Shown here: one piece after another, positions 27,273 to 61,542 of the stretch
How the letters are laid out: each line of letters starts with the position of its first letter
How positions within the stretch are numbered: position 1 is the first letter of the stretch
Assembly: GCA_000002445.1 (NCBI GenBank)
Contig: CP000069.1
Location: forward strand, 288,001-352,000
Source of the DNA: Trypanosoma brucei
Lineage: Eukaryota
Direction of reading: 5' to 3'
Length of the DNA: 64,000 bases
Made by a program: the position numbers and the translations under genes
The notes under the pieces: model-generated
Seen by the model: only the letters and a program-made list of their open reading frames with translations
Database searches by the model: none
What the model was told of the DNA's origin: nothing

Positions 27273-27667
27273 TATTTTCTTACATATCAAATCTTCCAGT
27301 GGTAATTCTTCCCTTGTATGCCAACAGGAGTGCGTAGACCTGCATTATCTTTTAAAAAATACATATTACCTTCTTACGTGTTAACTTTGTGAAACATAAC
27401 CTATGCGACATGATCTTTTCGAATGGTGGATATGCAAATGACTCTGCCCCAATGCCATGTGTCATGCTGTCCAGCACTCAGTGTTGGTGGTGACTTTATG
27501 AGCACCGCTTTAACTATTGTTTGGCAGTGCATTCCTTGTTTTTATGAAGTCAGGTTGATGCGCAGTGGTTGTCGTTATTTCTTTCCCTCATATATATACG
27601 CATGTGCATATTTCAGTATTTAAATACGTATGCTTACCTTGTTTGAGGTTCTATCATATTTGAAAAA

Positions 27668-27712
27668 CATTTTTTTATTTTTGTTTTGTCTACCTCACTT
27701 TGATGCTATATT
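27668..27712 (+). promoter_or_regulatory. Polypyrimidine tract with downstream AG, a candidate trans-splicing acceptor signal for adenylate cyclase copy 1. It is reiterated in every spacer.
   Basis: A T/C-rich run, atttttttatttttgttttgtctacctcactttg, lies about 300 nt upstream of the ORF. This is established trypanosomatid mRNA-processing logic. Confidence 0.5.
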
Positions 27713-28004
27713 TATCCACTACGGCACAGCAGGTGGCACCTTCCTCACACAGTCCCATGGAGGTTTATTTGCGATTGCCCAGGAAGTGGAACAGGAGGGG
27801 GAATATGGGAGTTAGGCGATGCGTCACAATTGCACTTTGCCGCTCTTACGGTGAGTTAACCGAATATTCTTTCGTGTGTGAACCGTAGTATTTCCACCCT
27901 CCCAGGGTTGAGGGTTTAATATTTTGATTATGTCGCGATTGGTGACTTTCTATTTCTGTCCAATACGTCGCCGGGCATGATCTGCATATGTATTAAGCGC
28001 GCCG

Positions 28005-31000
28005 ATGCCACTTTACTGGTTTCTATTTTCCCTCTTCGATATTCTTCTCGAAGACACAAGATTTCACATACGAATAATACCACACATTCCCGAAAATATG
28101 TGCCGGCAGGAAGGTGGCGGCAGAGGATGTGTGTACCCTCATGGAAACTGCAGGCGGAACCTTACCGCAAGGAGCCCTGCAGGGCGTTACAGCATGTACA
28201 AGCACTCACCTGTCATTACTGCTATGTCACTGCTACACTTGTTGCCTTTGCTACTCATGTGGATGCCACCTGTGTGCGCGGATGACAGTGCTGTGACGGT
28301 AAATGTGCTATCCATGATGTACAATTCGGAATATTACGTTGAGAAAGTGAACGCCATCAATGCCGGCTTTGACGCATCACTGAGTGCCCACGGTTGGAAG
28401 ACGGGCTCCGGTGCGACAATATCTGTCATCCGTCCCCCATCGTACAACACCACAGCTGAGGACATATTTCAGCTGGGGGCGAAACAAAGTGAAGGGAAGT
28501 TATTAGTTGTATTTGGGCCCCTGGGTACTGACCCTGTCGTTTGGGTTCGTGATAAACTAAAGGAAAATGATCTTGTTGCCATCGCTCCTATTGCGTACTC
28601 CAGTGAGGTCCGTGGTTGGAACCCTCACCTCTATTCAATAAGTGTCGAACCCAATGCTGAGCTCCTCGCCCTCATTCGATACGCTGTTGTTTATCTGGGT
28701 CTGCCGCGTGTAGGTTTGATGTATGCGAAGGGTAATGGGTTTGACAAGGAGTCATATGAGTTTACCATGCGAATAATGGAAATGATGGGCCGCAAGCCAT
28801 GTGGAGTGTTCGCTGTGGAGAGCAGTGGGGGTCGGGACGTCTTGGAGGGTGAATTGAATACCAAGTGGGGGCAATTTGTTGCTGCACGTCCGCAGGCTGT
28901 ACTGCTATTTTCATCGCTAGAGGAAGAAACCACCGGGTGGTTTGTCAAGAAGATAGCACAGGACAACCGCACTATGGACATGTACCTGCTCGCCCCTTCC
29001 AGTTTTCAACATTTTCTGATCAAAACATGGAGCGATGCGCTGGTGTCACTTAATCGTACGTTCACTCCTGGACAGCTGATCACAACTGGAACAGTGCCAC
29101 TCGCTAGTGACAATCGGTCCTCGATGGTTCGGCACTTCCAGCGTGACATGGACAATTACCTGGATACAAACAGTGACTGGAAGGGCTTTGCGAAACCTGA
29201 ACATTACCTTAAGGACGACAAATTAGGGGAGATGATGGTGTTTGGATGGCTTGCGGGAGAAGTTCTGTTTGAGGCCCTAAACAACGCTCCACAACTGACA
29301 AACCGTACTTCATTCATGGAATCTCTGTACAAGCAGCGTCGCTACGTGATTGATGACTTTGTGGTTGGTGACTTTGGTGGTGAGTGCGATGAGGGCGCTG
29401 CATTACAGGGTGCCATGTGTAATTGCAATCAAGGTGGCAGCATGGCGCATATGAGAGTTGTTGATGACAGCCTCAGTTTGAAGCCTATGAAAAAAGGCTC
29501 TGTGACGTGGAGTGTATCGGAGTGCTCAAGTGCTAATGTGCAGGTGAGCGCACCGTTAATCGGACTGTATGTAGTCCTTACGGATGATAAAGTTGCACAA
29601 CGTGCGAGCATGAGGTGGTCGTTGGGCGCTCGGAGCCTCGAGGAAGCGGATGATGTTGATAAGAGAATATTTTTCCATTCCTTAAAGGTTAATTTAAAAA
29701 ATTTAACGCAATCACTTGAACAAGTAAGGGACACGAAGGCTGTAGCTGCAGTTCTTGGTGTTGTTACCGCTGATATTCTGAGCGTGCCGAATATGACTTT
29801 CATTGGCCCTATTCCATTGTTCCCCCGGTTGAACAAGTTCTGGAGAAACGTGATCCATCTGCAACCGCTACTTGCGCAGCAGCTATATGTGCTTGCTGTA
29901 TACCTCTCCAACACCTCTTCCTTGGGAGTGAAGGCGCTTGTTCGCGGGAGTGAAGCATCTGAGGTTGTAGACACGCTTGATAAGTCATTGGTTACGTTTG
30001 GTGTGTCGCTTGATTCCAGTAAGACACTTGGTGATGGTGACCCGATATCGTCATATCTCTCGGGTAATGGAGATGTGTTTTGTATTGGACTCACTCCCCC
30101 TGACGTTGCTGCGGTTGCGCGGCACCTTCAGACCCACCTCAGGGCACGTGTATTCGTTCCATTCAATGACATTTTGTTGTTTTACCAGGAGTTTGTGGCT
30201 GCATTTAATGCGAGTAAAGAGTCTATTGCCAGCTCAGAGCGGCTCCTATTCGCGACGAGTTTCCCACACTGGGCAAAGAAGAACACGAAATCAGATATGG
30301 TTGCGAGATTTCATCGCCATGTAAATGAATCGCATTGGGATCCACTAACGTTCCTGGGCTTTGCTACCACTCGGCTGCTTCAGGTTGTTATCTCCAATAT
30401 GAAGAAAGTGAATGCAGAGCTGCTGGCAGACCGCATTTACACGGAGTCCAACATCAGAGTGGATGACGTGCGATTTGGACCCTTCAGTGATGCGGAATGT
30501 GTTTCTGGTACGAGTGTTTCGGCAAATGAGTGTGCCTCAAACTTTGGAGCCACAAACATTTCTGTATGGTCGATGGCGCGTGTGCTGAATTCAAGCTTGC
30601 CCAGGACACAGGTTGGGATGACACCGTCTATGGACTATGTTATTCCGCAAGAGGGTCAACTCACACAGTCACAGATAGCTGGAATAATTTCTGGGTGTGT
30701 ATCCGCCTTGTTATTATTTATTGCCCTTGGTGTGTTCCTACACATCTCCCTGCGGAACGCTCGTAACAACAACCGTGCACCCAAGGAGCCAACGGACCCC
30801 GTGACACTAATATTTACTGACATTGAGAGCAGCACTGCGTTGTGGGCTGCACACCCTGATCTGATGCCCGATGCCGTCGCCGCGCATCATCGTATGGTCC
30901 GTTCACTGATTGGGAGGTATAAGTGCTACGAAGTTAAAACTGTTGGGGATTCGTTCATGATAGCGAGTAAGAGTCCTTTCGCTGCCGTCCAACTCGCACA

Positions 31001-31829
31001 GGAATTACAGCTGTGTTTCTTGCATCATGACTGGGGAACAAATGCAGTTGATGATTCTTACCGTGAGTTTGAGGAGCAGCGTGCGGAGGGAGAATGTGAG
31101 TACACACCACCAACCGCGCATATGGATCCTGAAGTGTACAGTCGTTTGTGGAATGGCCTGCGTGTACGTGTTGGAATCCACACCGGGTTGTGCGACATCC
31201 GACACGATGAAGTGACGAAGGGATATGACTACTATGGGCGGACTCCAAACATGGCAGCAAGGACGGAGAGTGTAGCAAATGGTGGTCAGGTGCTGATGAC
31301 GCATGCGGCGTACATGTCGCTGTCAGCTGAGGATCGTAAGCAAATTGATGTCACTGCACTTGGTGCTGTCGCACTTCGCGGTGTGAGTGATCCGGTTAAG
31401 ATGTACCAGCTGAATACCGTGCCTAGTCGTAACTTTGCTGCATTGCGGCTGGACCGCGAATACTTTTTTGATGAGGGCGAGGATGGCACGACAACCTCCA
31501 CAAGCGACCACAGTTCTTCACGTGCGGAGCTGAGTGAATCAGCTCAGATAATTGCAACTGCACTACAGTCGCTGTTAAGCACGTTCAAGACAGCGCATCG
31601 TGAGAAGTTGTTGCTGCCGTATTGTGAGCGTTGGCGTGTGCCTCTTCCCCGTAAAGCTGCATCCGAGTGGGATGACGCCTACTGTGAGGAAGTGGTGCGT
31701 CGCATTGCAGTTAAGGTTGGGCGTGTCGCTGACCATGGCGCTCATAGTGGAAGTGAGTCTTCAAGTACGCAAGGCAGTTCATCAATTATTATCGTCCCCT
31801 TTTACGACATGCACCTTCAGGAATACTAA
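28005..31829 (+). CDS. GRESAG4: Receptor-type adenylate cyclase, GRESAG4/ESAG4 family, copy 1. The true start is probably Met at 28194 or 28224, just before the signal peptide MSLLHLLPLLLMWMPPVCA.
   Basis: The architecture is signal peptide, a large ectodomain, a single TM segment IAGIISGCVSALLLFIALGVFL, and a class III cyclase catalytic domain. The catalytic motifs are LIFTDIESST, KTVGDSFMIAS, RVGIHTG and DYYGRTPNMAAR. Confidence 0.9.
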   Translation: MPLYWFLFSLFDILLEDTRFHIRIIPHIPENMCRQEGGGRGCVYPHGNCRRNLTARSPAGRYSMYKHSPVITAMSLLHLLPLLLMWMPPVCADDSAVTVNVLSMMYNSEYYVEKVNAINAGFDASLSAHGWKTGSGATISVIRPPSYNTTAEDIFQLGAKQSEGKLLVVFGPLGTDPVVWVRDKLKENDLVAIAPIAYSSEVRGWNPHLYSISVEPNAELLALIRYAVVYLGLPRVGLMYAKGNGFDKESYEFTMRIMEMMGRKPCGVFAVESSGGRDVLEGELNTKWGQFVAARPQAVLLFSSLEEETTGWFVKKIAQDNRTMDMYLLAPSSFQHFLIKTWSDALVSLNRTFTPGQLITTGTVPLASDNRSSMVRHFQRDMDNYLDTNSDWKGFAKPEHYLKDDKLGEMMVFGWLAGEVLFEALNNAPQLTNRTSFMESLYKQRRYVIDDFVVGDFGGECDEGAALQGAMCNCNQGGSMAHMRVVDDSLSLKPMKKGSVTWSVSECSSANVQVSAPLIGLYVVLTDDKVAQRASMRWSLGARSLEEADDVDKRIFFHSLKVNLKNLTQSLEQVRDTKAVAAVLGVVTADILSVPNMTFIGPIPLFPRLNKFWRNVIHLQPLLAQQLYVLAVYLSNTSSLGVKALVRGSEASEVVDTLDKSLVTFGVSLDSSKTLGDGDPISSYLSGNGDVFCIGLTPPDVAAVARHLQTHLRARVFVPFNDILLFYQEFVAAFNASKESIASSERLLFATSFPHWAKKNTKSDMVARFHRHVNESHWDPLTFLGFATTRLLQVVISNMKKVNAELLADRIYTESNIRVDDVRFGPFSDAECVSGTSVSANECASNFGATNISVWSMARVLNSSLPRTQVGMTPSMDYVIPQEGQLTQSQIAGIISGCVSALLLFIALGVFLHISLRNARNNNRAPKEPTDPVTLIFTDIESSTALWAAHPDLMPDAVAAHHRMVRSLIGRYKCYEVKTVGDSFMIASKSPFAAVQLAQELQLCFLHHDWGTNAVDDSYREFEEQRAEGECEYTPPTAHMDPEVYSRLWNGLRVRVGIHTGLCDIRHDEVTKGYDYYGRTPNMAARTESVANGGQVLMTHAAYMSLSAEDRKQIDVTALGAVALRGVSDPVKMYQLNTVPSRNFAALRLDREYFFDEGEDGTTTSTSDHSSSRAELSESAQIIATALQSLLSTFKTAHREKLLLPYCERWRVPLPRKAASEWDDAYCEEVVRRIAVKVGRVADHGAHSGSESSSTQGSSSIIIVPFYDMHLQEY

Positions 31830-31911
31830 CCTTGTCATTGATGATATTCGTAGAGTAGCAGTAACATACCGGATTTCTGTTGGGTCGCCATTATTACGAT
31901 GAAGCCGTTGC

Positions 31912-31925
31912 CCATCGGCCGATGG
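31912..31925 (+). promoter_or_regulatory. A 14-bp perfect palindrome CCATCGGCCGATGG about 85 nt downstream of the cyclase stop codon. It recurs at 36671, 41425 and 46179. It is a candidate 3'UTR stem-loop.
   Basis: I read it directly. It is present in the four full spacers and absent after copy 5, where the 3' flank is unique. Confidence 0.45.
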
Positions 31926-32763
31926 CTCGCAATGTAAATGAATGTTATATGCATTAATAGTGCCAGCGTTTAGTGACGTTCATGCTTATTTCAACAATAT
32001 GTTTATTTTTTTTTAACTCTTGTTTTTATTTTCTTACATATCAAATCTTCCAGTGGTAATTCTTCCCTTGTATGCCAACAGGAGTGCGTAGACCTGCATT
32101 ATCTTTTAAAAAATACATATTACCTTCTTACGTGTTAACTTTGTGAAACATAACCTATGCGACATGATCTTTTCGAATGGTGGATATGCAAATGACTCTG
32201 CCCCAATGCCATGTGTCATGCTGTCCAGCACTCAGTGTTGGTGGTGACTTTATGAGCACCGCTTTAACTATTGTTTGGCAGTGCATTCCTTGTTTTTATG
32301 AAGTCAGGTTGATGCGCAGTGGTTGCCGTTATTTCTTTCCTTTGTAAATATACATAAATATATGCATATTTCAGTATTTAAATACGTATGCTTACCTTGT
32401 TTGAGGTTCTATCATATTTGAAAAACATTTTTTTTATTTTTGTTTTGTCTACCTCACTTTAATGCTATATTTATCCACTACGGCACAGCAGGTGGCACCT
32501 TCCTCACACAGTCCCATGGAGGTTTATTTGCGATTGCCCAGGAAGTGGAACAGGAGGGGGAATATGGGAGTTAGGCGATGCGTCACAATTGCACTTTGCC
32601 GCTCTTACGGTGAGTTAACCGAATATTCTTTCGTGTGTGAACCGTAGTATTTCCACCCTCCCAGGGTTGAGGGTTTAATATTTTGATTATGTCGCGATTG
32701 GTGACTTTCTATTTCTGTCCAATACGTCGCCGGGCATGATCTGCATATGTATTAAGCGCGCCG

Positions 32764-35700
32764 ATGCCACTTTACTGGTTTCTATTTTCCCTCTTTGATG
32801 TTCTTCTCGAAGACACAAGATTTCACATACGAATAATACCACACATTCCCGAAAATATGTGCCGGCAGGAAGGTGGCGGCAGAGGATGTGTGTACCCTCA
32901 TGGAAACTGCAGGCGGAACCTTACCGCAAGGAGCCCTGCAAGGCGTTACAGCATGTACAAGCACTCACCTGTCATTACTGCTATGTCACTGCTACACTTG
33001 TTGCCTTTGCTACTCATGTGGATGCCACCTGTGTGCGCGGATGACAGTGCTGTGACGGTAAATGTGCTATCCATGATGTACAATTCGGAATATTACGTTG
33101 AGAAAGTGAACGCCATCAATGCCGGCTTTGACGCATCACTGAGTGCCCACGGTTGGAAGACGGGCTCCGGTGCGACAATATCTGTCATCCGTCCCCCATC
33201 GTACAACACCACAGCTGAGGACATATTTCAGCTGGGGGCGAAACAAAGTGAAGGGAAGTTATTAGTTGTATTTGGGCCCCTGGGTACTGACCCTGTCGTT
33301 TGGGTTCGTGATAAACTAAAGGAAAATGATCTTGTTGCCATCGCTCCTATTGCGTACTCCGGTGAGGTCCGTGGTTGGAACCCTCACCTCTATTCAATAA
33401 GTGTCGAACCCGATGCTGAGCTCCTCGCCCTCATTCGATACGCTGTTGTTTATCTGGGTCTGCCGCGTGTAGGTTTGATGTATGCGAAGGGTAATGGGTT
33501 TGACAAGGAGTCATATGAGTTTACCATGCGAATAATGGAAATGATGGGCCGCAAGCCATGTGGAGTGTTCGCTGTGGAGAGCAGTGGGGGTCGGGACGTC
33601 TTGGAGGGTGAATTGAATACCAAGTGGGGGCAATTTGTTGCTGCACGTCCGCAGGCTGTACTGCTATTTTCGTCAATCGCGGATGATACCACCGGGTGGT
33701 TTGTCAAGAAGATAGCACAGGACAACCGCACTGTGGACATGTACCTGCTCGCCCCTTCCAGTTTTCAACATTTTCTGATCAAAACATGGAGCGATGCGCT
33801 GGTGTCACTTAATCGTACGTTCACTCCTGGACAGCTGATCACAACTGGAACAGTGCCACTCGCTAGTGACAATCGGTCCTCGATGGTTCGGCACTTCCAG
33901 CGTGACATGGACAATTACCTGGATACAAACAGTGACTGGAAGGGCTTTGCGAAACCTGAACATTACCTTAAGGACGACAAATTAGGGGAGATGATGGTGT
34001 TTGGATGGCTTGCGGGAGAAGTTCTGTTTGAGGCCCTAAACAACGCTCCACAACTGACAAACCGTACTTCATTCATGGAATCTCTGTACAAGCAGCGTCG
34101 CTACGTGATTGATGACTTTGTGGTTGGTGACTTTGGTGGTGAGTGCGATGAGGGCGCTGCATTACAGGGTGCCATGTGTAATTGCAATCAAGGTGGCAGC
34201 ATGGCGCATATGAGAGTTGTTGTCAACAGCCTCAGTTTGAAGCCTATGAACAGCGCCTCTGTGACGTGGAGTGTATCGGAGTGCTCAAGTGCTAATGTGC
34301 AGGTGAGCGCACCGTTAATCGGACTGTATGTAGTCCTTACGGATGATAAAGTTGCACAACGTGCGAGCATGAGGTGGTCGTTGGGCGCTCGGAGCCTCGA
34401 GGAAGCGGATGATGTTGATAAGAGAATATTTTTTTACCCACTATACGCAGAGTCAGGAAATGCAGCGAAGACTTTTGAAAAAATTCGTGACACGAAGGCT
34501 GTAGCTGCAGTTCTTGGTGTTGTTACCGCTGATATTCTGAGCGTGCCGAATATGACTTTCATTGGCCCTATTCCATTGTCCCCCCGGTTGAACAAGTTCT
34601 GGAGAAACGTGATCCATCTGCAACCGCTACTTGCGCAGCAGCTATATGTGCTTGCTGTATACCTCTCCAACACCTCTTCCTTGGGAGTGAAGGCGCTGGT
34701 TCGGTGGAGTGAAGCATCTGAGGTTGTAGACACGCTTGATAAGTCATTGGTTACGTTTGGTGTGTCGCTTGATTCCAGTAAGACACTTGGTGATGGTGAC
34801 CCGATATCGTCATATCTCTCGGGTAATGGAGATGTGTTTTGTATTGGACTCACTCCCCCTGACGTTGCTGCGGTTGCGCGGCACCTTCAGACCCACCTCA
34901 GGGCCCGTGTATTCGTTGGGTTCGGTGACATTTTGTTGTTTTACCAGGAGTTTGTGGCTGCATTTAATGCGAGTAAAGAGTCTATTGCCAGCTCAGAGCG
35001 GCTCCTATTCGCGACGAGTTTCCCACACTGGGCAAAGAAGAACACGAAATCAGATATGGTTGCGAGATTTCATCGCCATGTAAATGAATCGCATTGGGAT
35101 CCACTAACGTTCCTGGGCTTTGCTACCACTCGGCTGCTTCAGGTTGTTATCTCCAATATGAGGAAGGTGAATGCAGAGCTGCTGGCAGACCGCATTTACA
35201 CGGAGTCCAACATCAGAGTGGATGACGTGCGATTTGGACCCTTCAGTGATGCGGAATGTGTTTCTGGTACGAGTGTTTCGGCAAATGAGTGTGCCTCAAA
35301 CTTTGGAGCCACAAACATTTCTGTATGGTCGATGGCGCGTGTGCTGAATTCAAGCTTGCCCAGGACACAGGTTGGGATGACACCGTCTATGGACTATGTT
35401 ATTCCGCAAGAGGGTCAACTCACACAGTCACAGATAGCTGGAATAATTTCTGGGTGTGTATCCGCCTTGTTATTATTTATTGCCCTTGGTGTGTTCCTAC
35501 ACATCTCCCTGCGGAACGCTCGTAACAACAACCGTGCAGCCAAGGAACCAACGGACCCCGTGACACTAATATTTACTGACATTGAGAGCAGCACTGCGTT
35601 GTGGGCTGCACACCCTGATCTGATGCCCGATGCCGTCGCCGCGCATCATCGTATGGTCCGTTCACTGATTGGGAGGTATAAGTGCTACGAAGTTAAAACT

Positions 35701-41342: not shown

Positions 41343-42271
41343 CCTTGTCATTGATGATATTCGTAGAGTAGCAGTAACACACCGGATTTCTGTTGGGTCG
41401 CCATTATTACGATGAAGCCGTTGCCCATCGGCCGATGGCTCGCAATGTAAATGAATGTTATATGCATTAATAGTGCCAGCGTTTAGTGACGTTCATGCTT
41501 ATTTCAACAATATGTTTATTTTTTTTTAACTCTTGTTTTTATTTTCTTACATATCAAATCTTCCAGTGGTAATTCTTCCCTTGTATGCCAACAGGAGTGC
41601 GTAGACCTGCATTATCTTTTAAAAAATACATATTACCTTCTTACGTGTTAACTTTGTGAAACATAACCTATGCGACATGATCTTTTCGAATGGTGGATAT
41701 GCAAATGACTCTGCCCCAATGCCATGTGTCATGCTGTCCAGCACTCAGTGTTGGTGGTGACTTTATGAGCACCGCTTTAACTATTGTTTGGCAGTGCATT
41801 CCTTGTTTTTATGAAGTCAGGTTGATGCGCAGTGGTTGTCGTTATTTCTTTCCCTCATATATATACGCATGTGCATATTTCAGTATTTAAATACGTATGC
41901 TTACCTTGTTTGAGGTTCTATCATATTTGAAAAACATTTTTTTATTTTTGTTTTGTCTACCTCACTTTAATGCTATATTTATCCACTACGGCACAGCAGG
42001 TGGCACCTTCCTCACACAGTCCCATGGAGGTTTATTTGCGATTGCCCAGGAAGTGGAACAGGAGGGGGAATATGGGAGTTAGGCGATGCGTCACAATTGC
42101 ACTTTGCCGCTCTTACGGTGAGTTAACCGAATATTCTTTCGTGTGTGAACCGTAGTATTTCCACCCTCCCAGGGTTGAGGGTTTAATATTTTGATTATGT
42201 CGCGATTGGTGACTTTCTATTTCTGTCCAATACGTCGCCGGGCATGATCTGCATATGTATTAAGCGCGCCG

Positions 42272-45200
42272 ATGCCACTTTACTGGTTTCTATTTTCCCT
42301 CTTTGATATTCTTCTCGAAGACACAAGATTTCACATACGAATAATACCACACATTACCGAAAATATGTGCCGGCAGGAAGGTGGCGGCAGAGGATGTGTG
42401 TACCCTCATGGAAACTGCAGGCGGAACCTTACCGCAAGGAGCCCTGCAAGGCGTTACAGCATGTACAAGCACTCACCTGTCATTACTGCTATGTCACTGC
42501 TACACTTGTTGCCTTTGCTACTCATGTGGATGCCACCTGTGTGCGCGGATGACAGTGCTGTGACGGTAAATGTGCTATCCATGATGTACAATTCGGAATA
42601 TTACGTTGAGAAAGTGAACGCCATCAATGCCGGCTTTGACGCATCACTGAGTGCCCACGGTTGGAAGACGGGCTCCGGTGCGACAATATCTGTCATCCGT
42701 CCCCCATCGTACAACACCACAGCTGAGGACATATTTCAGCTGGGGGCGAAACAAAGTGAAGGGAAGTTATTAGTTGTATTTGGGCCCCTGGGTACTGACC
42801 CTGTCGTTTGGGTTCGTGATAAACTAAAGGAAAATGATCTTGTTGCCATCGCTCCTATTGCGTACTCCGGTGAGGTCCGTGGTTGGAACCCTCACCTCTA
42901 TTCAATAAGTGTCGAACCCGATGCTGAGCTCCTCGCCCTCATTCGATACGCTGTTGTTTATCTGGGTCTGCCGCGTGTAGGTTTGATGTATGCGAAGGGT
43001 AATGGGTTTGACAAGGAGTCATATGAGTTTACCATGCGAATAATGGAAATGATGGGCCGCAAGCCATGTGGAGTGTTCGCTGTGGAGAGCAGTGGGGGTC
43101 GGGACGTCTTGGAGGGTGAATTGAATACCAAGTGGGGGCAATTTGTTGCTACACGTCCGCAGGCTGTACTGCTATTTTCGTCAATCGCGGATGATACCAC
43201 CGGGTGGTTTGTCAAGAAGATAGCACAGGACAACCGCACTGTGGACATGTACCTGCTCGCCCCTTCCAGTTTTCAACATTTTCTGATCAAAACATGGAGC
43301 GATGCGCTGGTGTCACTTAATCGTACGTTCACTCCTGGACAGCTGATCACAACTGGAACAGTGCCACTCGCTAGTGACAATCGGTCCTCGATGGTTCGGC
43401 ACTTCCAGCGTGACATGGACAATTACCTGGATACAAACAGTGACTGGAAGGGCTTTGCGAAACCTGAACATTACCTTAAGGACGACAAATTAGGGGAGAT
43501 GATGGTGTTTGGATGGCTTGCGGGAGAAGTTCTGTTTGGGGCCCTAAACAACGCTCCACAACTGACAAACCGTACTTCATTCATGGAATCTCTGTACAAG
43601 CAGCGTCGCTACGTGATTGATGACTTTGTGGTTGGTGACTTTGGTGGTGAGTGCGATGAGGGCGCTGCATTACAGGGTGCCATGTGTAATTGCAATCAAG
43701 GTGGCAGCATGGCGCATATGAGAGTTGTTGATGACAGCCTCAGTTTGAAGCCTATGAAGAAAGGCTCTGTGACGTGGAGTGTATCGGAGTGCTCAAGTGC
43801 TAATGTGCGGGTGAGCGCACCGTTAATCGGACTGTATGTAGTCCTTACGGATGATAAAGTTGCACAACGTGCGAGCATGAGGTGGTCGTTGGGCGCTCGG
43901 AGCCTCGAGGAAGCGGATGATGTTGATAAGAGAATATTTTTCCATTCCTTAAAGGTTAATTTGAAAAATTTAACGCAATCACTTGAACAAGTAAGGGACA
44001 CGAAGGCTGTAGCTGCAGTTCTTGGTGTTGTTACCGCTGATATTCTGAGCGTGCCGAATATGACTTTCATTGGCCCTATTCCACTGTTCCCCCGGTTGAA
44101 CAAGTTCTGGAGAAACGTGATCCATCTGCAACCGCTACTTGCGCAGCAGCTATATGTGCTTGCTGTATACCTCTCCAACACCTCTTCCATGGGAGTGAAG
44201 GCGCTTGTTCGCGGGGGTGAAGCATCTGAGGTTGTAGACACGCTTGATAAGTCATTGGTTACGTTTGGTGTGTCGCTTGATTCCAGTAAGACACTTGGTG
44301 ATGATGACCCAATGTCGTCATATCTCTCGGGTAATGGAGATGTGTTTTGTATTGGACTCACTCCCCCTGACGTTGCTGCGGTTGCGCGGCACCTTCAGAC
44401 CCACCGCAGGGCCCGTGTATTCGTTCCATTCAATGACATTTTGTTGTTTTACCAGGAGTTTGTGGCTGCATTTAATGCGAGTAAAGAGTCTATTGCCAGC
44501 TCAGAGCGGCTCCTATTCGCGACGAGTTTCCCACACTGGGCGGAGAAGAACACGAAATCAGATATGGTTGCGAGATTTCATCGCCATGTAAATGAATCGC
44601 ATTGGGATCCACTAACGTTCCTGGGCTTTGCTACCACTCGGTTGCTTCAGGTTGTTATCTCCAATATGAGGAAGGTGAATGCAGAGCTGCTGGCAGACCG
44701 CATTTACACGGAGTCCAACATCAGAGTGGATGACGTGCGATTTGGACCCTTCAGTGATGCGGAATGTGTTTCTGGTACGAGTGTTTCGGCAAATGAGTGT
44801 GCCTCAAACTTTGGAGCCACAAACATTTCTGTATGGTCGATGGCGCGTGTGCTGAATTCAAGCTTGCCCAGAACACAGGTTGGGATGACACCGTCTATGG
44901 ACTATGTTATTCCGCAAGAGGGTCAACTAACACAGTCACAGATAGCTGGAATAATTTCTGGGTGTGTATCCGCCTTGTTATTATTTATTGCCCTTGGTGT
45001 GTTCCTACACATCTCCCTGCGGAACGCTCGTAACAACAACCGTGCACCCAAGGAACCAACGGACCCCGTGACACTAATATTTACTGACATTGAGAGCAGC
45101 ACTGCGTTGTGGGCTGCACACCCTGATCTGATGCCCGATGCCGTCGCCGCGCATCATCGTATGGTCCGTTCACTGATTGGGAGGTATAAGTGCTACGAAG

Positions 45201-46096
45201 TTAAAACTGTTGGGGATTCGTTCATGATAGCGAGTAAGAGTCCTTTGGCTGCCGTCCAACTCGCACAGGAATTACAACTGTGTTTCTTGCATCATGACTG
45301 GGGAACAAATGCAGTTGATGATTCTTACCGTGAGTTTGAGGAGCAGCGTGCGGAGGGAGAATGTGAGTACACACCACCAACCGCGCATATGGATCCTGAA
45401 GTGTACAGTCGTTTGTGGAATGGCCTGCGTGTACGTGTTGGAATCCACACCGGGTTGTGCGACATCCGACACGATGAAGTGACGAAGGGATATGACTACT
45501 ATGGGCGGACTCCAAACATGGCAGCAAGGACAGAGAGTGTAGCAAATGGTGGTCAGGTGCTGATGACGCATGCGGCGTACATGTCGCTGTCAGCTGAGGA
45601 TCGTAAGCAAATTGATGTCACTGCACTTGGTGCTGTCGCACTTCGCGGTGTGAGTGATCCGGTTAAGATGTACCAGCTGAATACCGTGCCTAGTCGTAAC
45701 TTTGCTGCATTACGGCTGGACCGCGAATACTTTTTTGATGAGGGCGAGGATGGCACGACAACCTCCACGAGCGACCACAGTTCTTCACGTGCGGAGCTGA
45801 GTGAATCAGCTCAGATAATTGCAACTGCACTACAGTCGCTGTTAAGCACGTTCAAGACAGCGCATCGTGAGAAGTTGTTGCTGCCGTATTGTGAGCGTTG
45901 GCGTGTGCCTCTTCCCCGTAAAGCTGCATCCGAGTGGGATGACGCCTACTGTGAGGAAGTGGTGCGTCGCATTGCAGTTAAGGTTGGGCGCGTCGCTGAC
46001 CATGGCGCTCATAGTGGAAGTGAGTCGTCAAGTACGCAAGGCAGTTCATCAATTATTATCGTCCCCTTTTACGACATGCACCTTCAGGAATACTAA
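42272..46096 (+). CDS. GRESAG4: Receptor-type adenylate cyclase, GRESAG4 family, copy 4.
   Basis: It has the same architecture. It carries the cassette-A ectodomain (VDDSLSLKPMKKGS...FFHSLKVNLKNLTQSLEQV) as in copy 1, but is copy-2/3-like elsewhere. Confidence 0.9.
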   Translation: MPLYWFLFSLFDILLEDTRFHIRIIPHITENMCRQEGGGRGCVYPHGNCRRNLTARSPARRYSMYKHSPVITAMSLLHLLPLLLMWMPPVCADDSAVTVNVLSMMYNSEYYVEKVNAINAGFDASLSAHGWKTGSGATISVIRPPSYNTTAEDIFQLGAKQSEGKLLVVFGPLGTDPVVWVRDKLKENDLVAIAPIAYSGEVRGWNPHLYSISVEPDAELLALIRYAVVYLGLPRVGLMYAKGNGFDKESYEFTMRIMEMMGRKPCGVFAVESSGGRDVLEGELNTKWGQFVATRPQAVLLFSSIADDTTGWFVKKIAQDNRTVDMYLLAPSSFQHFLIKTWSDALVSLNRTFTPGQLITTGTVPLASDNRSSMVRHFQRDMDNYLDTNSDWKGFAKPEHYLKDDKLGEMMVFGWLAGEVLFGALNNAPQLTNRTSFMESLYKQRRYVIDDFVVGDFGGECDEGAALQGAMCNCNQGGSMAHMRVVDDSLSLKPMKKGSVTWSVSECSSANVRVSAPLIGLYVVLTDDKVAQRASMRWSLGARSLEEADDVDKRIFFHSLKVNLKNLTQSLEQVRDTKAVAAVLGVVTADILSVPNMTFIGPIPLFPRLNKFWRNVIHLQPLLAQQLYVLAVYLSNTSSMGVKALVRGGEASEVVDTLDKSLVTFGVSLDSSKTLGDDDPMSSYLSGNGDVFCIGLTPPDVAAVARHLQTHRRARVFVPFNDILLFYQEFVAAFNASKESIASSERLLFATSFPHWAEKNTKSDMVARFHRHVNESHWDPLTFLGFATTRLLQVVISNMRKVNAELLADRIYTESNIRVDDVRFGPFSDAECVSGTSVSANECASNFGATNISVWSMARVLNSSLPRTQVGMTPSMDYVIPQEGQLTQSQIAGIISGCVSALLLFIALGVFLHISLRNARNNNRAPKEPTDPVTLIFTDIESSTALWAAHPDLMPDAVAAHHRMVRSLIGRYKCYEVKTVGDSFMIASKSPLAAVQLAQELQLCFLHHDWGTNAVDDSYREFEEQRAEGECEYTPPTAHMDPEVYSRLWNGLRVRVGIHTGLCDIRHDEVTKGYDYYGRTPNMAARTESVANGGQVLMTHAAYMSLSAEDRKQIDVTALGAVALRGVSDPVKMYQLNTVPSRNFAALRLDREYFFDEGEDGTTTSTSDHSSSRAELSESAQIIATALQSLLSTFKTAHREKLLLPYCERWRVPLPRKAASEWDDAYCEEVVRRIAVKVGRVADHGAHSGSESSSTQGSSSIIIVPFYDMHLQEY

Positions 46097-47030
46097 CCTT
46101 GTCATTGATGATATTCGTAGAGTAGCAGTAACACACCGGATTTCTGTTGGGTCGCCATTATTACGATGAAGCCGTTGCCCATCGGCCGATGGCTCGCAAT
46201 GTAAATGAATGTTATATGCATTAATAGTGCCAGCGTTTAGTGACGTTCATGCTTATTTCAACAATATGTTTATTTTTTTTTAACTCTTGTTTTTATTTTC
46301 TTACATATCAAATCTTCCAGTGGTAATTCTTCCCTTGTATGCCAACAGGAGTGCGTAGACCTGCATTATCTTTTAAAAAATACATATTACCTTCTTACGT
46401 GTTAACTTTGTGAAACATAACCTATGCGACATGATCTTTTCGAATGATGGATATGCAAATGACTCTGCCCCAATGCCATGTGTCATGCTGTCCAGCACTC
46501 AGTGTTGGTGGTGACTTTATGAGCACCGCTTTAACTATTGTTTGGCAGTGCATTCCTTGTTTTTATGAAGTCAGGTTGATGCGCAGTGGTTGCCGTTATT
46601 TCTTTCCTTTGTAAATATACATAAATATATGCATATTTCAGTATTTAAATACGTATGCTTACCTTGTTTGAGGTTCTATCATATTTGAAAAACATTTTTT
46701 TTATTTTTGTTTTGTCTACCTCACTTTAATGCTATATTTATCCACTACGGCACAGCAGGTGGCACCTTCCTCACACAGTCCCATGGAGGTTTATTTGCGA
46801 TTGCCCAGGAGGTGGAACAGGAGGGGGAATATGGGAGTTAGGCGATGCGTCACAATTGCACTTTGCCGCTCTTACGGTGAGTTAACCGAATATTCTTTCG
46901 TGTGTGAACCGTAGTATTTCCACCCTCCCAGGGTTGAGGGTTTAATATTTTGATTATGTCGCGATTGGTGACTTTCTATTTCTGTCCAATACGTCGCCGG
47001 GCATGATCTGCATATGTATTAAGCGCGCCG

Positions 47031-50000
47031 ATGCCACTTTACTGGTTTCTATTTTCCCTCTTTGATATTCTTCTCGAAGACACAAGATTTCACATACGAA
47101 TAATACCACACATTACCGAAAATATGTGCCGGCAGGAAGGTGGCGGAAGAGGATGTGTGTACCCTCATGGAAACTGCAGGCGGAACCTTACCGCAAGGAG
47201 CCCTGCAAGGCGTTACAGCATGTACAAGCACTTACCTGTCATTACTGCTATATCACTGCTACACTTGTTGCCTTTGCTACTCATGTGGATGCCACCTGTG
47301 TGCGCGGATGACAGTGCTGTGACGGTAAATGTGCTATCCATGATGTACAATTCGGAATATTACGTTGAGAAAGTGAACGCCATCAATGCCGGCTTTGACG
47401 CATCACTGAGTGCCCACGGTTGGAAGACGGGCTCCGGTGCGACAATATCTGTCATCCGTCCCCCATCGTACAACACCACAGCTGAGGACATATTTCAGCT
47501 GGGGGCGAAACAAAGTGAAGGGAAGTTATTAGTTGTATTCGGGCCCCTGGGTACTGACCCTGTCGTTTGGGTTCGTGATAAACTAAAGGAAAATGATCTT
47601 GTTGCCATCGCTCCTATTGCGTACTCCAGTGAGGTCCGTGGTTTTAATCCCCACCTCTATTCAATAAGTGTCGAACCCAATGCTGAGCTCCTCGCCCTCA
47701 TTCGATACGCTGTTGTTTATCTGGGTCTGCCGCGTGTGGGTTTGATGTATGCGAAGGGTAATGGGTTTGACAAGGAGTCATATGAGTTTACCATGCGAAT
47801 AATGGAAATGATGGGCCGCAAGCCATGTGGAGTGTTCGCTGTGGAGAGCAGTGGGGGTCGGGACGTCTTGGAGGGTGAATTGAATACCAAGTGGGGGCAA
47901 TTTGTTGCTACACGTCCGCAGGCTGTACTGCTATTTTCGTCAATCGCGGATGATACCACCGGGTGGTTTGTCAAGAAGATAGCACAGGACAACCGCACTG
48001 TGGACATGTACCTGCTCGCCCCTTCCAGTTTTCAACATTTTCTGATCAAAACATGGAGCGATGCGCTGGTGTCACTTAATCGTACGTTCACTCCTGGACA
48101 GCTGATCACAACTGGAACAGTGCCACTCGCTAGTGACAATCGGTCCTCGATGGTTCGGCACTTCCAGCGTGACATGGACAATTACCTGGATACAAACAGT
48201 GACTGGAAGGGCTTTGCGAAACCTGAACATTACCTTAAGGACGACAAATTAGGGGAGATGATGGTGTTTGGATGGCTTGCGGGAGAAGTTCTGTTTGAGG
48301 CCCTAAACAACGCTCCACAACTGACAAACCGTACTTCATTCATGGAATCTCTGTACAAGCAGCGTCGCTACGTGATTGATGACTTTGTGGTTGGTGACTT
48401 TGGTGGTGAGTGCGATGAGGGCGCTGCATTACAGGGTGCCATGTGTAATTGCAATCAAGGTGGCAGCATGGCGCATATGAGAGTTGTTGATGACAGCCTC
48501 AGTTTGAAGCCTATGAACAGCGCCTCTGTGACGTGGAGTGTATCGGAGTGCTCAAGTGCTAATGTGCGGGTGAGCGCACCGTTAATCGGACTGTATGTAG
48601 TCCTTACGGATGATAAAGTTGCACAACGTGCGAGCATGAGGTGGTCGTTGGGCGCTCGGAGCCTCGAGGAAGCGGATGATGTTGATAAGAGAATATTTTT
48701 TTACCCACTATACGCAGAGTCAGGAAATGCAGCGAAGACTTTTGAAAAAATTCGCGACACGAAGGCTGTAGCTGCAGTTCTTGGTGTTGTTACCGCTGAT
48801 ATTCTGAGCGTGCCGAATATGACTTTCATTGGTACTCTTCCCCTGTCCCCCCGGTTGAACAAGTTCTGGAGAAACGTGATCCATCTGCAACCGCTACTTG
48901 CGCAGCAGCTATATGTGCTTGCTGTATACCTCTCCAACACCTCTTCCATGGGAGTGAAGGCGCTTGTTCGCGGGGGTGAAGCATCTGAGGTTGTAGACAC
49001 GCTTGATAAGTCATTGGTTACGTTTGGTGTGTCGCTTGATTCCAGTAAGACACTTGGTGATGATGACCCAATGTCGTCATATCTCTCGGGTAATGGAGAT
49101 GTGTTTTGTATTGGACTCACTCCCCCTGACGTTGCTGCGGTTGCGCGGCACCTTCAGACCCACCTCAGGGCCCGTGTATTCGTTCCATTCAATGACATTT
49201 TGTTGTTTTACCAGGAGTTTGTGGCTGCATTTAATGCGAGTAAAGAGTCTATTGCCAGCTCAGAGCGGCTCCTATTCGCGACGAGTTTCCCACACTGGGC
49301 GGAGAAGAACACGAAATCAGATATGGTTGCGAGATTTCATCGCCATGTAAATGAATCGCATTGGGATCCACTAACGTTCCTGGGCTTTGCTACCACTCGG
49401 CTGCTTCAGGTTGTTATCTCCAATATGAGGAAGGTGAATGCAGAGCTGCTGGCAGACCGCATTTACACGGAGTCCAACATCAGAGTGGATGACGTGCGAT
49501 TTGGACCCTTCAGTGATGCGGAATGTGTTTCTGGTACGAGTGTTTCGGCAAATGAGTGTGCCTCAAACTTTGGAGCCACAAACATTTCTGTATGGTCGAT
49601 GGCGCGTGTGCTGAATTCAAGCTTGCCCAGAACACAGGTTGGGATGACACCGTCTATGGACTATGTTATTCCGCGAGAGGGTCAACTCACACAGTCACAG
49701 ATAGCTGGAATAATTTCTGGGTGTGTATCCGCCTTGTTATTATTTATTGCCCTTGGTGTGTTCCTACACATCTCCCTGCGGAACGCTCGTAACAACAACC
49801 GTGCACCCAAGGAACCAACGGACCCCGTGACACTAATATTTACTGACATTGAGAGCAGCACTGCGTTGTGGGCTGCACACCCTGATCTGATGCCCGATGC
49901 CGTCGCCGCGCATCATCGTATGGTCCGTTCACTGATTGGGAGGTATAACTGCTACGAAGTCAAAACTGTTGGGGATTCGTTCATGATAGCGAGTAAGAGT

Positions 50001-50864
50001 CCTTTCGCTGCCGTCCAACTCGCACAGGAATTACAACTGTGTTTCTTGCATCATGACTGGGGAACAAATGCAGTTGATGATTCTTACCGTGAGTTTGAGG
50101 AGCAGCGTGCGGAGGGAGAATGTGAGTACACACCACCAACCGCGCATATGGATCCTGAAGTGTACAGTCGTTTGTGGAATGGCCTGCGTGTACGTGTTGG
50201 AATCCACACCGGGTTGTGCGACATCCGACACGATGAAGTGACGAAGGGATATGACTACTATGGGCGGACTCCAAACATGGCAGCAAGGACGGAGAGTGTA
50301 GCAAATGGTGGTCAGGTGCTGATGACGCATGCGGCGTACATGTCGCTGTCAGCTGAGGATCGTAAGCAAATTGATGTCACTGCACTTGGTGCTGTCGCAC
50401 TTCGCGGTGTGAGTGATCCGGTTAAGATGTACCAGCTGAATACCGTGCCTAGTCGTAACTTTGCTGCATTGCGGCTGGACCGCGAATACTTTTTTGATGA
50501 GGGCGAGGATGGCACGACAACCTCCACAAGCGACCACAGTTCTTCACGTGCGGAGCTGAGTGAATCAGCTCAGATAATTGCAACTGCACTACAGTCGCTG
50601 TTAAGCACGTTCAAGACAGCGCATCGTGAGAAGTTGTTGCTGCCGTATTGTGAGCGTTGGCGTGTGCCTCTTCCCCGTAAAGCCGCATCCGAGTGGGATG
50701 ACGCCTACTGTGAGGAAGTGGTGCGTCGCATTGCAGTTAAGGTTGGGCGTGTCGCTGACCATGGCGCTCATAGTGGAAGTGAGTCGTCAAGTACGCAAGG
50801 CAGTTCATCAATTATTATCGTCCCCTTTTACGACCCTTGCTACCGTGAAATGTGTTCTTTTTAA
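47031..50864 (+). CDS. GRESAG4: Receptor-type adenylate cyclase, GRESAG4 family, copy 5, at the array edge. Its C-terminus is divergent.
   Basis: This 1277-aa ORF has a chimeric ectodomain: VDDSLSLKPM from cassette A joined to NSAS...FFYPLYAESGNAAKTFEKI from cassette B. Its private substitutions are GFNPHLY, TLPLSPR, IPREGQ and RYNCY. The C-terminal PFYDPCYREMCSF replaces PFYDMHLQEY where array homology ends near 50823. Confidence 0.9.
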   Translation: MPLYWFLFSLFDILLEDTRFHIRIIPHITENMCRQEGGGRGCVYPHGNCRRNLTARSPARRYSMYKHLPVITAISLLHLLPLLLMWMPPVCADDSAVTVNVLSMMYNSEYYVEKVNAINAGFDASLSAHGWKTGSGATISVIRPPSYNTTAEDIFQLGAKQSEGKLLVVFGPLGTDPVVWVRDKLKENDLVAIAPIAYSSEVRGFNPHLYSISVEPNAELLALIRYAVVYLGLPRVGLMYAKGNGFDKESYEFTMRIMEMMGRKPCGVFAVESSGGRDVLEGELNTKWGQFVATRPQAVLLFSSIADDTTGWFVKKIAQDNRTVDMYLLAPSSFQHFLIKTWSDALVSLNRTFTPGQLITTGTVPLASDNRSSMVRHFQRDMDNYLDTNSDWKGFAKPEHYLKDDKLGEMMVFGWLAGEVLFEALNNAPQLTNRTSFMESLYKQRRYVIDDFVVGDFGGECDEGAALQGAMCNCNQGGSMAHMRVVDDSLSLKPMNSASVTWSVSECSSANVRVSAPLIGLYVVLTDDKVAQRASMRWSLGARSLEEADDVDKRIFFYPLYAESGNAAKTFEKIRDTKAVAAVLGVVTADILSVPNMTFIGTLPLSPRLNKFWRNVIHLQPLLAQQLYVLAVYLSNTSSMGVKALVRGGEASEVVDTLDKSLVTFGVSLDSSKTLGDDDPMSSYLSGNGDVFCIGLTPPDVAAVARHLQTHLRARVFVPFNDILLFYQEFVAAFNASKESIASSERLLFATSFPHWAEKNTKSDMVARFHRHVNESHWDPLTFLGFATTRLLQVVISNMRKVNAELLADRIYTESNIRVDDVRFGPFSDAECVSGTSVSANECASNFGATNISVWSMARVLNSSLPRTQVGMTPSMDYVIPREGQLTQSQIAGIISGCVSALLLFIALGVFLHISLRNARNNNRAPKEPTDPVTLIFTDIESSTALWAAHPDLMPDAVAAHHRMVRSLIGRYNCYEVKTVGDSFMIASKSPFAAVQLAQELQLCFLHHDWGTNAVDDSYREFEEQRAEGECEYTPPTAHMDPEVYSRLWNGLRVRVGIHTGLCDIRHDEVTKGYDYYGRTPNMAARTESVANGGQVLMTHAAYMSLSAEDRKQIDVTALGAVALRGVSDPVKMYQLNTVPSRNFAALRLDREYFFDEGEDGTTTSTSDHSSSRAELSESAQIIATALQSLLSTFKTAHREKLLLPYCERWRVPLPRKAASEWDDAYCEEVVRRIAVKVGRVADHGAHSGSESSSTQGSSSIIIVPFYDPCYREMCSF

Positions 50865-52114: not shown

Positions 52115-52133
52115 GTGTGTGTGTGTGTGTGTG
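52115..52133. repeat. (GT)n microsatellite left of the hairpin. The mirror-image (CA)n(GA)n lies at 52815-52841 right of the hairpin.
   Basis: Sequence reads gtgtgtgtgtgtgtgtgtg on the left and cacacacacacacacacagagagaga on the right. Confidence 0.9.
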
Positions 52134-52475
52134 GAGGGTTGTCTGATTTCTTTTAGCTTTTCAATGCTGCAGAGACAAACCCACATTTTTTTTGTTTCTC
52201 TTTTGCATAAATGAGATGCCGTGGAGACACTAAATGGCGACGTGTGCCTCCAACTGTCATGATGACGACTGTCATGTTCCGCCAATGCCTTCAGGTAGCC
52301 GAAATGTTTGGCTTTAAACAGTGTGTGCGTGTTTGTGGGGTGCGTGGGAACCGGAACTCCGGTGTCTCGGGGAAATGCGTGCCGCTTCTGATGAACCTTC
52401 GCCTCCCCCCGATAGCGAGGGAAGCCCGGTTCCCTCCGTCCACCGCAACGGACTCTTTTACTTGCGTATTGTCGA

Positions 52476-61499: not shown

Positions 61500-61542
<43 letters not shown>

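Follow-up and report, generated by a model that had tools for sequence, protein, structure and literature searches.

The locus examined here corresponds to array 42 of a published catalogue (Jackson 2007; Jackson et al. 2010), which is listed as Tb927.6.760 on chromosome 6, with 5 copies and a PHI p<0.001 (PMC2854126, Table 2). Its copies are described as recombinant mosaics and are counted as 5 in brucei and 4, as annotated, in gambiense (PMC2854126); the published dS is 0.0262 and the dN 0.0135. Tb927.6.760 is referred to as GRESAG4.1 (PMC9481589). In the GRESAG4.1 catalytic domain and its relatives, cAMP is made only by a head-to-tail homodimer of catalytic domains, in which each monomer supplies the metal-binding aspartates of one site together with the adenine-specifying and transition-state residues of the other; a trypanosome-specific Delta-subdomain has been described inside the cyclase domain (PMC6027212). 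The ectodomain probably governs dimerisation, in response to a ligand or to membrane, acid or osmotic stress. Proteins of the family are found on the flagellar membrane, where their cAMP feeds parasite signalling, and upon parasite lysis or phagocytosis cAMP suppresses host TNF-alpha (PMC6027212).

ESAG4 proteins belong to the same family and have the same domain order as the proteins of the array, and one TREU927 protein annotated as ESAG4 shows 52% identity across 91% of the query. While ESAG4 resides in the telomeric Pol I VSG expression site, the array is chromosome-internal and flanked by housekeeping genes. GRESAG4 genes are reported to be constitutively expressed and ESAG4 to be bloodstream-specific (PMC7719234). 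Mammalian receptor guanylyl cyclases such as NPR-A share the topology of a flytrap ectodomain, one transmembrane (TM) helix and a class III cyclase active as a dimer, and the family profile matches NPR-A in the cyclase domain (E 8e-5). In contrast to the NPR-A type, the array proteins appear to have two flytrap modules instead of one, lack a kinase-homology domain and are adenine-specific (Lys/Asp pair); the Delta-subdomain and a tail specific to the family are additional (PMC6027212).

Identity and organization of the array

The window is a stretch of 64,000 nucleotides of Trypanosoma brucei DNA. We are highly confident that the repeats in it correspond to the GRESAG4.1 tandem array on chromosome 6 of T. 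b. brucei TREU927, comprising Tb927.6.760 and the next four genes, and no observation speaks against this identification. All five proteins, read from M32, are identical to the consecutive TREU927 entries AAZ11640-AAZ11644 (XP_845199-845203), and these matches all fall on one 1,618,915-bp TREU927 record, in the chromosome interior, where the array agrees exactly with the deposited annotation. The tags.770,.780 and.800 would follow from gene order in Tb927.6.760-800. These five exact matches bear out the initial annotation, which had called a five-copy GRESAG4-type receptor adenylate cyclase array with about 4.95 units of 4.75 kb, about 98-99% identical, at 27273-50825. The measured boundaries differ from that extent by less than 10 bp, the repeat consists of four units of 4754 or 4759 bp and 95% of a fifth (4542 of about 4756 nt), and pairwise nucleotide identity is 97.9-99.1% over 4542 shared columns (Table 1). 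Array 42 and the array described here agree in locus, copy number, divergence and the mosaic conclusion; there is no substantive difference, and what is added here is where each unit begins and ends, the C-terminus peculiar to copy 5, and a two-form (A/B) cassette.

Table 1. Features of the array and its flanks (positions within the window; aa in ORF numbering)
Feature	Position	Strand	Remarks
Gene-free interval, minus-strand phosphoesterase gene to array	20539..27271	.	candidate divergent strand-switch region
1.1-kb inverted duplication, right arm	26138..27233	+	partner 2238-3309, 95%
Whole tandem array	27272..50834	+	(Z 4537-4542 nt + T 217 nt) x4 + final Z; 4.95 units
Unit 1, 4754 nt	27272..32025	+	copy 1, AAZ11640, assigned Tb927.6.760
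Unit 2, 4759 nt	32026..36784	+	copy 2, AAZ11641; 5 extra bases are spacer indels
Unit 3, 4754 nt	36785..41538	+	copy 3, AAZ11642 (P0001, exact match)
Unit 4, 4754 nt	41539..46292	+	copy 4, AAZ11643; type A cassette in common with copy 1
Unit 5, truncated, 4542 nt	46293..50834	+	copy 5, AAZ11644
ORF copy 1, 1274 aa	28005-31829	+	
ORF copy 2, 1274 aa	32764-36588	+	
ORF copy 3, 1274 aa	37518-41342	+	
ORF copy 4, 1274 aa	42272-46096	+	
ORF copy 5, 1277 aa	47031-50864	+	
CDS copy 1 from annotated start M32, 1243 aa	28098..31829	+	ORF open from ATG 28005
Equivalent CDSs, copies 2-5	32857-36588, 37611-41342, 42365-46096, 47124-50864	+	from M32
Signal-sequence hydrophobic h-region, copy 1 (predicted)	28206..28280	+	aa 68-92, Kyte-Doolittle 1.79
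Ectodomain, copy 1	28281..30665	+	aa 93-887; two predicted periplasmic-binding-protein / Venus-flytrap-like modules
53-nt dimorphic cassette	29675..29729	+	aa 558-574
Single transmembrane helix region	30666..30761	+	aa 888-919; core IISGCVSALLLFIALGVFL; no variation among the five copies
Class III cyclase homology domain incl. trypanosome Delta-subdomain, copy 1	30762..31466	+	aa 920-1154
Family-specific cytosolic C-terminal tail	31467..31826	+	aa 1155-1274
Junction segment T	31809..32025	+	after copies 1-4 only; last 7 codons (MHLQEY*) + 196 nt
Copy 5's own C-terminal codons (PCYREMCSF*)	50835..50864	+	unique 3' flank follows
Gene-free interval, array to minus-strand PUF gene	50865..62721	.	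candidate convergent strand-switch region

Each unit carries one intact plus-strand ORF, and the ORF starts are spaced by 4759, 4754, 4754 and 4759 nt. The left edge of the repeat is sharp, with unrelated sequence 5' of it, and segment T ends 3' in the polypyrimidine tract that opens the next unit; the spacer is 0.93 kb long. Because the repeat stops 30 nt short of the stop codon of copy 5, this copy has its own C-terminus and 3' flank, and its final residues resemble the C-termini of paralogues. In-frame start candidates are M1, M32 and M64. Translation probably does not begin at the first ATG of the ORF; M32 is the annotated start, and conservation among paralogues favours it.

Variants of the originally cloned GRESAG4.1 (LEEE, DD...KKG and the type A cassette) are also found in copy 1, while the old UniProt GRESAG4.1 sequence (P0002) has only 90% overall identity to the array protein. 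Three stretches of P0002 look locally frame-shifted when the sequences are compared, or may be strain differences.

Protein architecture and catalytic domain

The layout proposed at the outset (signal peptide, ectodomain, one TM segment, class III cyclase) agrees with the Pfam domains, the single TM and the N-terminal hydrophobic region. In the copies tested we obtained matches to two adenylate-cyclase-specific periplasmic-binding-protein-like domains, PF25495 (2e-52) and PF25493 (2e-127), and to the class III cyclase domain PF00211 (1e-42). From M32, about 36 residues precede the N-terminal hydrophobic stretch, at the end of which cleavage is predicted between VCA and DD. N-terminal "TMDs" in receptor cyclases are probably signal peptides missed by prediction (PMC7719234). 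The sole strong internal hydropathy peak (2.64, aa 894-912) is followed by the basic stretch LRNARNNNR.

The ectodomain comprises about 795 aa (about 90 kDa) with 11-12 N-glycosylation sequons. A sequence-only PDB search with this region found no match. Its AlphaFold model (pLDDT 82, pTM 0.82) retrieved LivJ/LivK-type binding proteins and the flytraps of GABA-B, mGlu and taste receptors with Foldseek (E about 1e-12, target TM 0.65-0.76), in an output that is silent on which half of the ectodomain aligned. The two Pfam domains, together with the repeated beta-alpha pattern of the model, suggest that the ectodomain is built of two flytrap modules.

The cyclase domain aligns without gaps to the GRESAG4.1 crystal structure 1FX2, with 232 of 234 residues identical (99%). 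This ungapped alignment spans the Delta-subdomain insertion of about 36 aa. Among the features of the ESAG4/GRESAG4 family, the cyclase domain, Delta-subdomain, single TM and flytrap-like ectodomain are present. FTDIE, VKTVGDSFM, RVRVGIHTG, YDYYG and PNMAART occupy identical positions in all five copies, including the four motifs (FTDIE, GDSFM, RVGIHTG, NMAAR) earlier described as intact. The catalytic residues are likewise intact in 5/5 copies (FTD939IE, VK978TVGD982SFM, R1055VGIH, YD1075YYG and PN1082MAAR1086, ORF numbering). By comparison with class III cyclases in general, we take this set to be two metal-binding Asp, the adenine-specifying Lys and Asp, the phosphate-binding Arg, and the transition-state Asn and Arg. 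Seven substitutions distinguish the copies within the cyclase homology domain, none of them at catalytic residues.

Divergence and mosaicism among copies

Overall, pS is 0.0256 and pN 0.0116, which reproduces the published divergence of array 42. The pN/pS ratio is 0.26 in the cyclase homology domain, 0.54 in the ectodomain and 0 in the tail, whose amino-acid sequence is the same in every copy as far as aa 1267. The published mosaicism is reproduced as well: the variants lie in patches, and of 1485 informative-site pairs, 735 do not pass the four-gamete test. In the ectodomain, copies 1 and 4 carry cassette type A (HSLKVNLKNLTQSLEQV, with an NLT sequon), and copies 2, 3 and 5 carry type B (YPLYAESGNAAKTFEKI); about half of the cassette nucleotides differ between the two, and a switch gains or loses one N-glycosylation sequon. 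Both forms are also present in gambiense.

Genomic neighborhood and transcription

The array was said to begin immediately after the right arm of an inverted duplication, and the gap is in fact 38 nt. Its neighbors are the housekeeping genes AlaRS, DEAH helicase and PUF, and synteny with gambiense chromosome 6 is kept (helicase, phosphoesterase, then cyclases). All genes to the left are on the minus strand, and the nearest conserved gene on the 3' side is the minus-strand PUF gene (62722-63855). The sign of the AT skew reverses at about 21.5-22 kb in the upstream gene-free interval and at about 52.5 kb in the downstream one. Candidate processing sites, a polypyrimidine tract followed by AG, occur in every spacer. 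The array had been proposed to form a whole plus-strand transcription unit (PTU) ending in a convergent strand-switch region; both proposals fit the ORF strands and the skew flips, which suggest, at the level of sequence, a single-family PTU between divergent and convergent switches.

It is unlikely that the array is instead not a self-contained unit, with transcription beginning within it or at a more distant upstream site, or with unannotated plus-strand genes or ncRNAs in the unit. Such doubt comes from unannotated, plus-strand-biased sequence on both sides (6.7 kb on the upstream side, about 1.7 kb on the downstream side), and from a 110-aa plus-strand ORF annotated upstream of the array in gambiense. 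However, the flanking intervals contain no tRNA, no Rfam family and, among ORFs of 200 aa or more, none that matches Pfam; the small gambiense ORFs of these intervals have no Pfam match, and tblastn of the flanks found no cyclase relics.

Copy number and functionality

With units 98-99% identical and some 300-nt spacer stretches 100% identical between them, the five copies could be an assembly artefact produced by collapse or mis-joining of the repeats, the true TREU927 locus having more or fewer units on one or both homologues. The array in gambiense DAL972 contains three runs of N and is visibly mis-joined, and T. equiperdum offers only a 145-aa fragment on a 2.7-kb contig. Array size, called likely to be polymorphic in the initial annotation, may vary, but the published contrast of 5 with 4 copies depends on this gapped and mis-joined gambiense assembly, and its "4 copies" is no measurement of copy-number variation. 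We nevertheless consider an artefact in TREU927 unlikely. Private substitutions are present in every unit (17, 16, 11, 9 and 2 sites), and the patches are combined differently in each, so no unit simply repeats another; the agreement with the deposited annotation is exact, and published Tb927.6.760 primers cross-react with.790 only, which fits the haplotype common to copies 1 and 4.

All copies look functional, as judged from their intact cyclase motifs. That only some are, the others being silent or decaying duplicates, is very improbable: truncation affects about 21% of the receptor cyclases annotated in T. b. brucei (PMC7719234), but here all five ORFs are full length with every catalytic residue kept and neither frameshift nor premature stop codon, neither the TM helix nor the tail varies, and pN/pS is low in the cyclase domain (0.26).

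Proposed function and significance

The five head-to-tail units each encode a type I membrane protein with a long putative signal sequence and a tail of about 120 aa. They may be transcribed as one polycistron, without per-gene promoters, from the divergent to the convergent switch, with trans-splicing and polyadenylation at the spacer polypyrimidine tracts releasing the individual mRNAs from the pre-mRNA. The main effect of tandem repetition would be higher dosage, and recombination and gene conversion among copies could shuffle a few ectodomain variants into five distinct isoforms. Dimerisation, activation, localisation and host effect are taken from published work on GRESAG4.1 and its relatives and would be expected here.

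The genes, the array, its copy number and mosaic evolution, the catalytic-domain structure and the family biology are all already published, and a five-copy cyclase array is ordinary for the T. brucei genome. The discovery value is therefore small, and the use of the check is in calibration: a call made from sequence was right in family, with boundaries within 10 bp. For work at the locus, copies 1 and 4 carry a cassette missing from the other three, and copy 5 is unlike the others in its final residues and 3' flank. The ectodomain patches, most clearly the A/B cassette, could be an old maintained polymorphism as opposed to neutral leftovers of gene conversion, with the last copy regulated separately via its own C-terminus and 3' UTR; we regard this as a speculative and improbable reading. 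If it were true, the receptor isoforms encoded at this one locus would differ in their ligand or glycan properties.

Organization of the tandem array

The five ORFs of the array start 4759, 4754, 4754 and 4759 nt apart, and the copies are 97.9-99.1% identical in pairwise comparison over shared columns. The coordinates proposed in the initial annotation (27273-50825) agree to within 10 bp with the limits found here (27272-50834); its unit length, copy number and identity are also correct, and the observation of a five-copy array is confirmed. Base-by-base comparison places a sharp left edge of the repeat at 27272. In a MAFFT alignment of the units, unit 5 remains collinear with the others up to 50834 and diverges completely beyond that position, 30 nt before its stop codon; therefore, the array has the structure (Z + T) x4 + Z, where segment Z (4537-4542 nt) comprises the spacer and codons 1-1267, and segment T (217 nt) comprises the last seven codons and 196 nt. 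The total is 4.95 units, which bears out the earlier estimate.

Because the edge of the repeat falls within the coding region, copies 1-4 end in ...PFYDMHLQEY, followed by 196 nt and then by the polypyrimidine tract of the next unit. Copy 5 ends in ...PFYDPCYREMCSF, followed by unique sequence. The similarity of this C-terminus to that of one paralogue (...PLHDLYCRENYSI) suggests that the copy 5 form is probably ancestral. GRESAG4.1 as first cloned has the internal-type C-terminus. Segment T is not a duplicate of the sequence immediately upstream or downstream of the array, to which it bears no similarity.

Coordinates of the array genes, variable patches and flanking features (window positions)
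Feature	Position	Strand	Remark
Copy 1	28005-31829	+	1274 aa; ORF scan
Copy 2	32764-36588	+	1274 aa; ORF scan
Copy 3	37518-41342	+	1274 aa; ORF scan
Copy 4	42272-46096	+	1274 aa; ORF scan
Copy 5	47031-50864	+	1277 aa; ORF scan
Patch	27572-27604		spacer; copies 1+3+4 vs 2+5
Patch	28913-28928		copy 1 vs all others
Patch	29675-29729		copies 1+4 vs 2+3+5
Inverted duplication	2238-3309 / 26138-27233		1.1 kb, 95% identical
Palindrome	52476-52598		47-nt arms, 46/47 complementary, loop ~29 nt
PUF protein gene	62722-63855	-	next conserved gene on right; Pfam

Identity of the genes

Copies 1 and 5 match two adenylate cyclase periplasmic-binding-protein-like families in Pfam (PF25495, E 2e-52; PF25493, E 2e-127) as well as the class III cyclase family PF00211 (E 1e-42). 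The catalytic domain (aa 921-1154, numbered from the first ATG) aligns with trypanosome receptor adenylate cyclases, a point on which the initial annotation had made its call depend: it is identical at 232/234 positions, without gaps, to the T. brucei GRESAG4.1 catalytic domain (PDB 1FX2), and the second-best structure match is GRESAG4.3 (1FX4). A search of 5.8 billion proteins returned trypanosome receptor cyclases as the sole matches, the best being a TREU927 protein of 1243 aa that is identical to copy 3 from codon 32 (Met). All five products read from this codon were found by exact-sequence look-up, and the order of their accessions matches the order of the copies along the window, as judged by N-terminal and cassette variants. 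The interpretation as receptor adenylate cyclases is supported.

The locus has been catalogued before, as array 42 ("Adenylate cyclase, GRESAG4, Tb927.6.760") on chromosome 6, with listed copy numbers of five (brucei) and four (gambiense) (Jackson et al. 2010, PMC2854126), in an earlier survey (PMC1855330), and as Tb927.6.760 = GRESAG4.1 (Bachmaier et al. 2022, PMC9481589). Thus the array is fully annotated and published, and is already known in detail.

Some related database entries are anomalous. The UniProt GRESAG 4.1 entry (P0002) matches copy 1 (28098-31826) at only 90% identity; three stretches of it (the N-terminus, ~aa 470-490 and the TM region) look locally frame-shifted, and the transmembrane helix is lost there. 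Two proteins labelled Schistosoma mansoni (P0004 and P0033) are GRESAG4 sequences; Smp_112590 (1254 aa, 76% identical) lies on a 17-kb contig, and Smp_186530 (49 aa) falls in the same 90% cluster. The sequences so labelled are probably trypanosome contamination of that assembly.

The counterpart locus in T. b. gambiense

The syntenic locus in the DAL972 assembly (L001/L003, FN554969.1:109669-148161) carries the helicase, phosphoesterase and cyclases and aligns at 98%. Three 100-N runs lie inside its array, one copy runs without a break into the downstream flank, and the upstream flank occurs a second time in mid-array; three of the four annotated array genes are fragments (962, 927 and 1220 aa). 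Because this array is gapped and mis-joined, the gambiense count of four is not a measurement and lends no support to the copy-number polymorphism expected in the initial annotation. The same assembly difficulty calls for some caution on the TREU927 count of five, although private substitutions are present in each of its units.

An 81%-identical paralogue (P0003) is located on the same chromosome at a distance of ~95 kb (L002, FN554969.1:14217-37954, in T. b. gambiense), directly upstream of the genes for the haptoglobin-haemoglobin receptor and a procyclin. It was rejected as an array member, being a separate cyclase gene that adjoins those loci. Its C-terminus is similar to that of copy 5.

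Genomic flanks and the predicted transcription unit

The minus-strand genes of the left flank encode an alanyl-tRNA synthetase, a DEAH/R3H helicase and a calcineurin-like phosphoesterase. The 6.7 kb between them and the array hold no ORF of at least 200 aa with a family match, six-frame fragments from the flanks are visibly low-complexity, and the flanks in the gambiense annotation have no Pfam match. A tblastn search of the flanks with the cyclase found no cyclase relics outside the array, and tRNA and Rfam scans of the whole window found no tRNAs or Rfam families. The minus-strand genes have a positive AT skew; the skew is negative from ~21.5-22 kb through the array and positive again from ~52.5 kb. 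A plus-strand transcription unit consisting of the five cyclase genes only, running from a divergent to a convergent strand-switch region as first proposed, would fit these data; it agrees with both the ORF strands and the flips in AT skew, and it is from strand and composition that we infer it.

The array had also been described as starting directly after the right arm of the inverted duplication, and the gap between them is indeed 38 nt. The duplication is AT-rich and of low complexity, and its arms flank the entire 23-kb minus-strand gene block; in T. b. gambiense, positions 26379-27157, the greater part of the right arm, are missing. The seven siRNA-producing long inverted repeats catalogued for this genome in PMC3447711 do not include this duplication. 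The same study describes siRNAs at every convergent unit of T. brucei.

The palindrome lies 1.6 kb beyond the array, at the change of sign in AT skew. Its DNA fold has an energy of -57.8 kcal/mol (z = -13.5 against shuffles), and it is also present in T. b. gambiense, where the left arm is more diverged and the DAL972 assembly breaks. It may mark the convergence point of two transcription units. The interval between the array and the PUF gene is gene-free for ~10 kb. Within it, positions 56000-62500, like 1-2200, consist of low-complexity A/T-rich repeats (26-31% GC) with no ORF with a family match, and diverge faster between subspecies than genes do (92% vs 98%). The AT-rich 56-62 kb region was considered as a centromere and dropped as not obviously centromeric, having neither 147-bp satellite arrays nor rRNA genes.

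Domain composition and start codon

Hydropathy analysis shows one strong internal helix (aa 894-912, score 2.64) and a hydrophobic N-terminal stretch (aa 68-92) ending VCA|DD. The motifs FTDIE, VKTVGDSFM, RVRVGIHTG, YDYYG and PNMAART occupy the same positions in all five copies, so that the cyclase motifs are intact as claimed. In class III cyclases, such motifs provide two aspartates for metal binding, a Lys and an Asp for adenine specificity, an Arg for phosphate binding, and an Asn and an Arg for the transition state. None of the seven amino acid differences in the catalytic domain (926, 973, 992, 1015, 1104, 1110, 1112) is at a catalytic residue.

A family-profile, sequence-only search of PDB sequences gave no match for the ectodomain, so its fold was examined by structure prediction. 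The AlphaFold2 model of aa 93-887, built from a 19-sequence family alignment (pLDDT 82, pTM 0.82), resembles in Foldseek bacterial Leu/Ile/Val-, urea- and aromatic-acid-binding proteins, and also the flytrap domains of GABA-B, mGlu and taste receptors (E ~1e-12, target-normalised TM 0.65-0.76). The predicted fold independently reproduces the homology reported with Tb927.6.760 by Emes and Yang 2008 (PMC2386149).

The ORF of copy 1 opens at 28005; in the TREU927 annotation the start is M32 (28098). A start at M64 would yield a textbook signal peptide; however, the closest paralogues have Lys at M64 and Ile or Val at M74, though the protein is still conserved from M32 onward, which argues against M64 as the general start codon and makes M32 the better-supported one on sequence grounds. 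A start at M32 implies a long basic n-region, like that of several other family members. Between the first ATG and M32, a polypyrimidine tract (28016-28049) followed by AG at 28052 could be a candidate splice-acceptor region.

Variation among copies

The copies differ at 57 amino acid positions. Of these, 45 lie in the ectodomain, seven in the cyclase domain and five at the N-terminus; no variable position falls in the TM helix or the tail. Mean pS and pN are 0.0256 and 0.0116, close to the dS of 0.0262 and dN of 0.0135 published for array 42 (Jackson 2007, PMC1855330). The pN/pS ratio falls from 0.54 for the ectodomain to 0.26 for the cyclase domain and 0 for the tail. In the unit alignment the variants are patchy, the patches give conflicting groupings of copies, and the four-gamete test fails for 735/1485 informative-site pairs. 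The copies are recombinant mosaics, in agreement with the published PHI test (p<0.001) and 11 GARD breakpoints for array 42 (Jackson et al. 2010, PMC2854126).

Among the patches, a 53-nt cassette stands out most: its two types differ at about half of their nucleotides. Type A (HSLKVNLKNLTQSLEQV) has an NLT sequon and is similar to the nearest paralogues. Type B (YPLYAESGNAAKTFEKI) lacks the sequon and has no close counterpart among the paralogues retrieved, with the "SGAAK" motif occurring in one ESAG4-like protein. Both types are found in gambiense proteins. The report that primers for Tb927.6.760 also match Tb927.6.790 (PMC10653379) is consistent with a haplotype common to copies 1 and 4.

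Functional context

GRESAG4 genes are reported to be constitutively expressed (PMC7719234). As monomers the catalytic domains have no activity, and cAMP is made by a head-to-tail homodimer; isolated GRESAG4.1 domains dimerise poorly, and forced dimerisation raises the activity of a relative more than 20-fold (PMC6027212). Dimerisation is presumably under the control of the two flytrap modules, with the Delta-subdomain as a possible allosteric site, and acid, hypotonic or proteolytic stress is strongly activating (PMC6027212). Receptor cyclases are flagellar proteins, and cyclase activity released upon phagocytosis suppresses TNF-alpha in host myeloid cells (PMC6027212).
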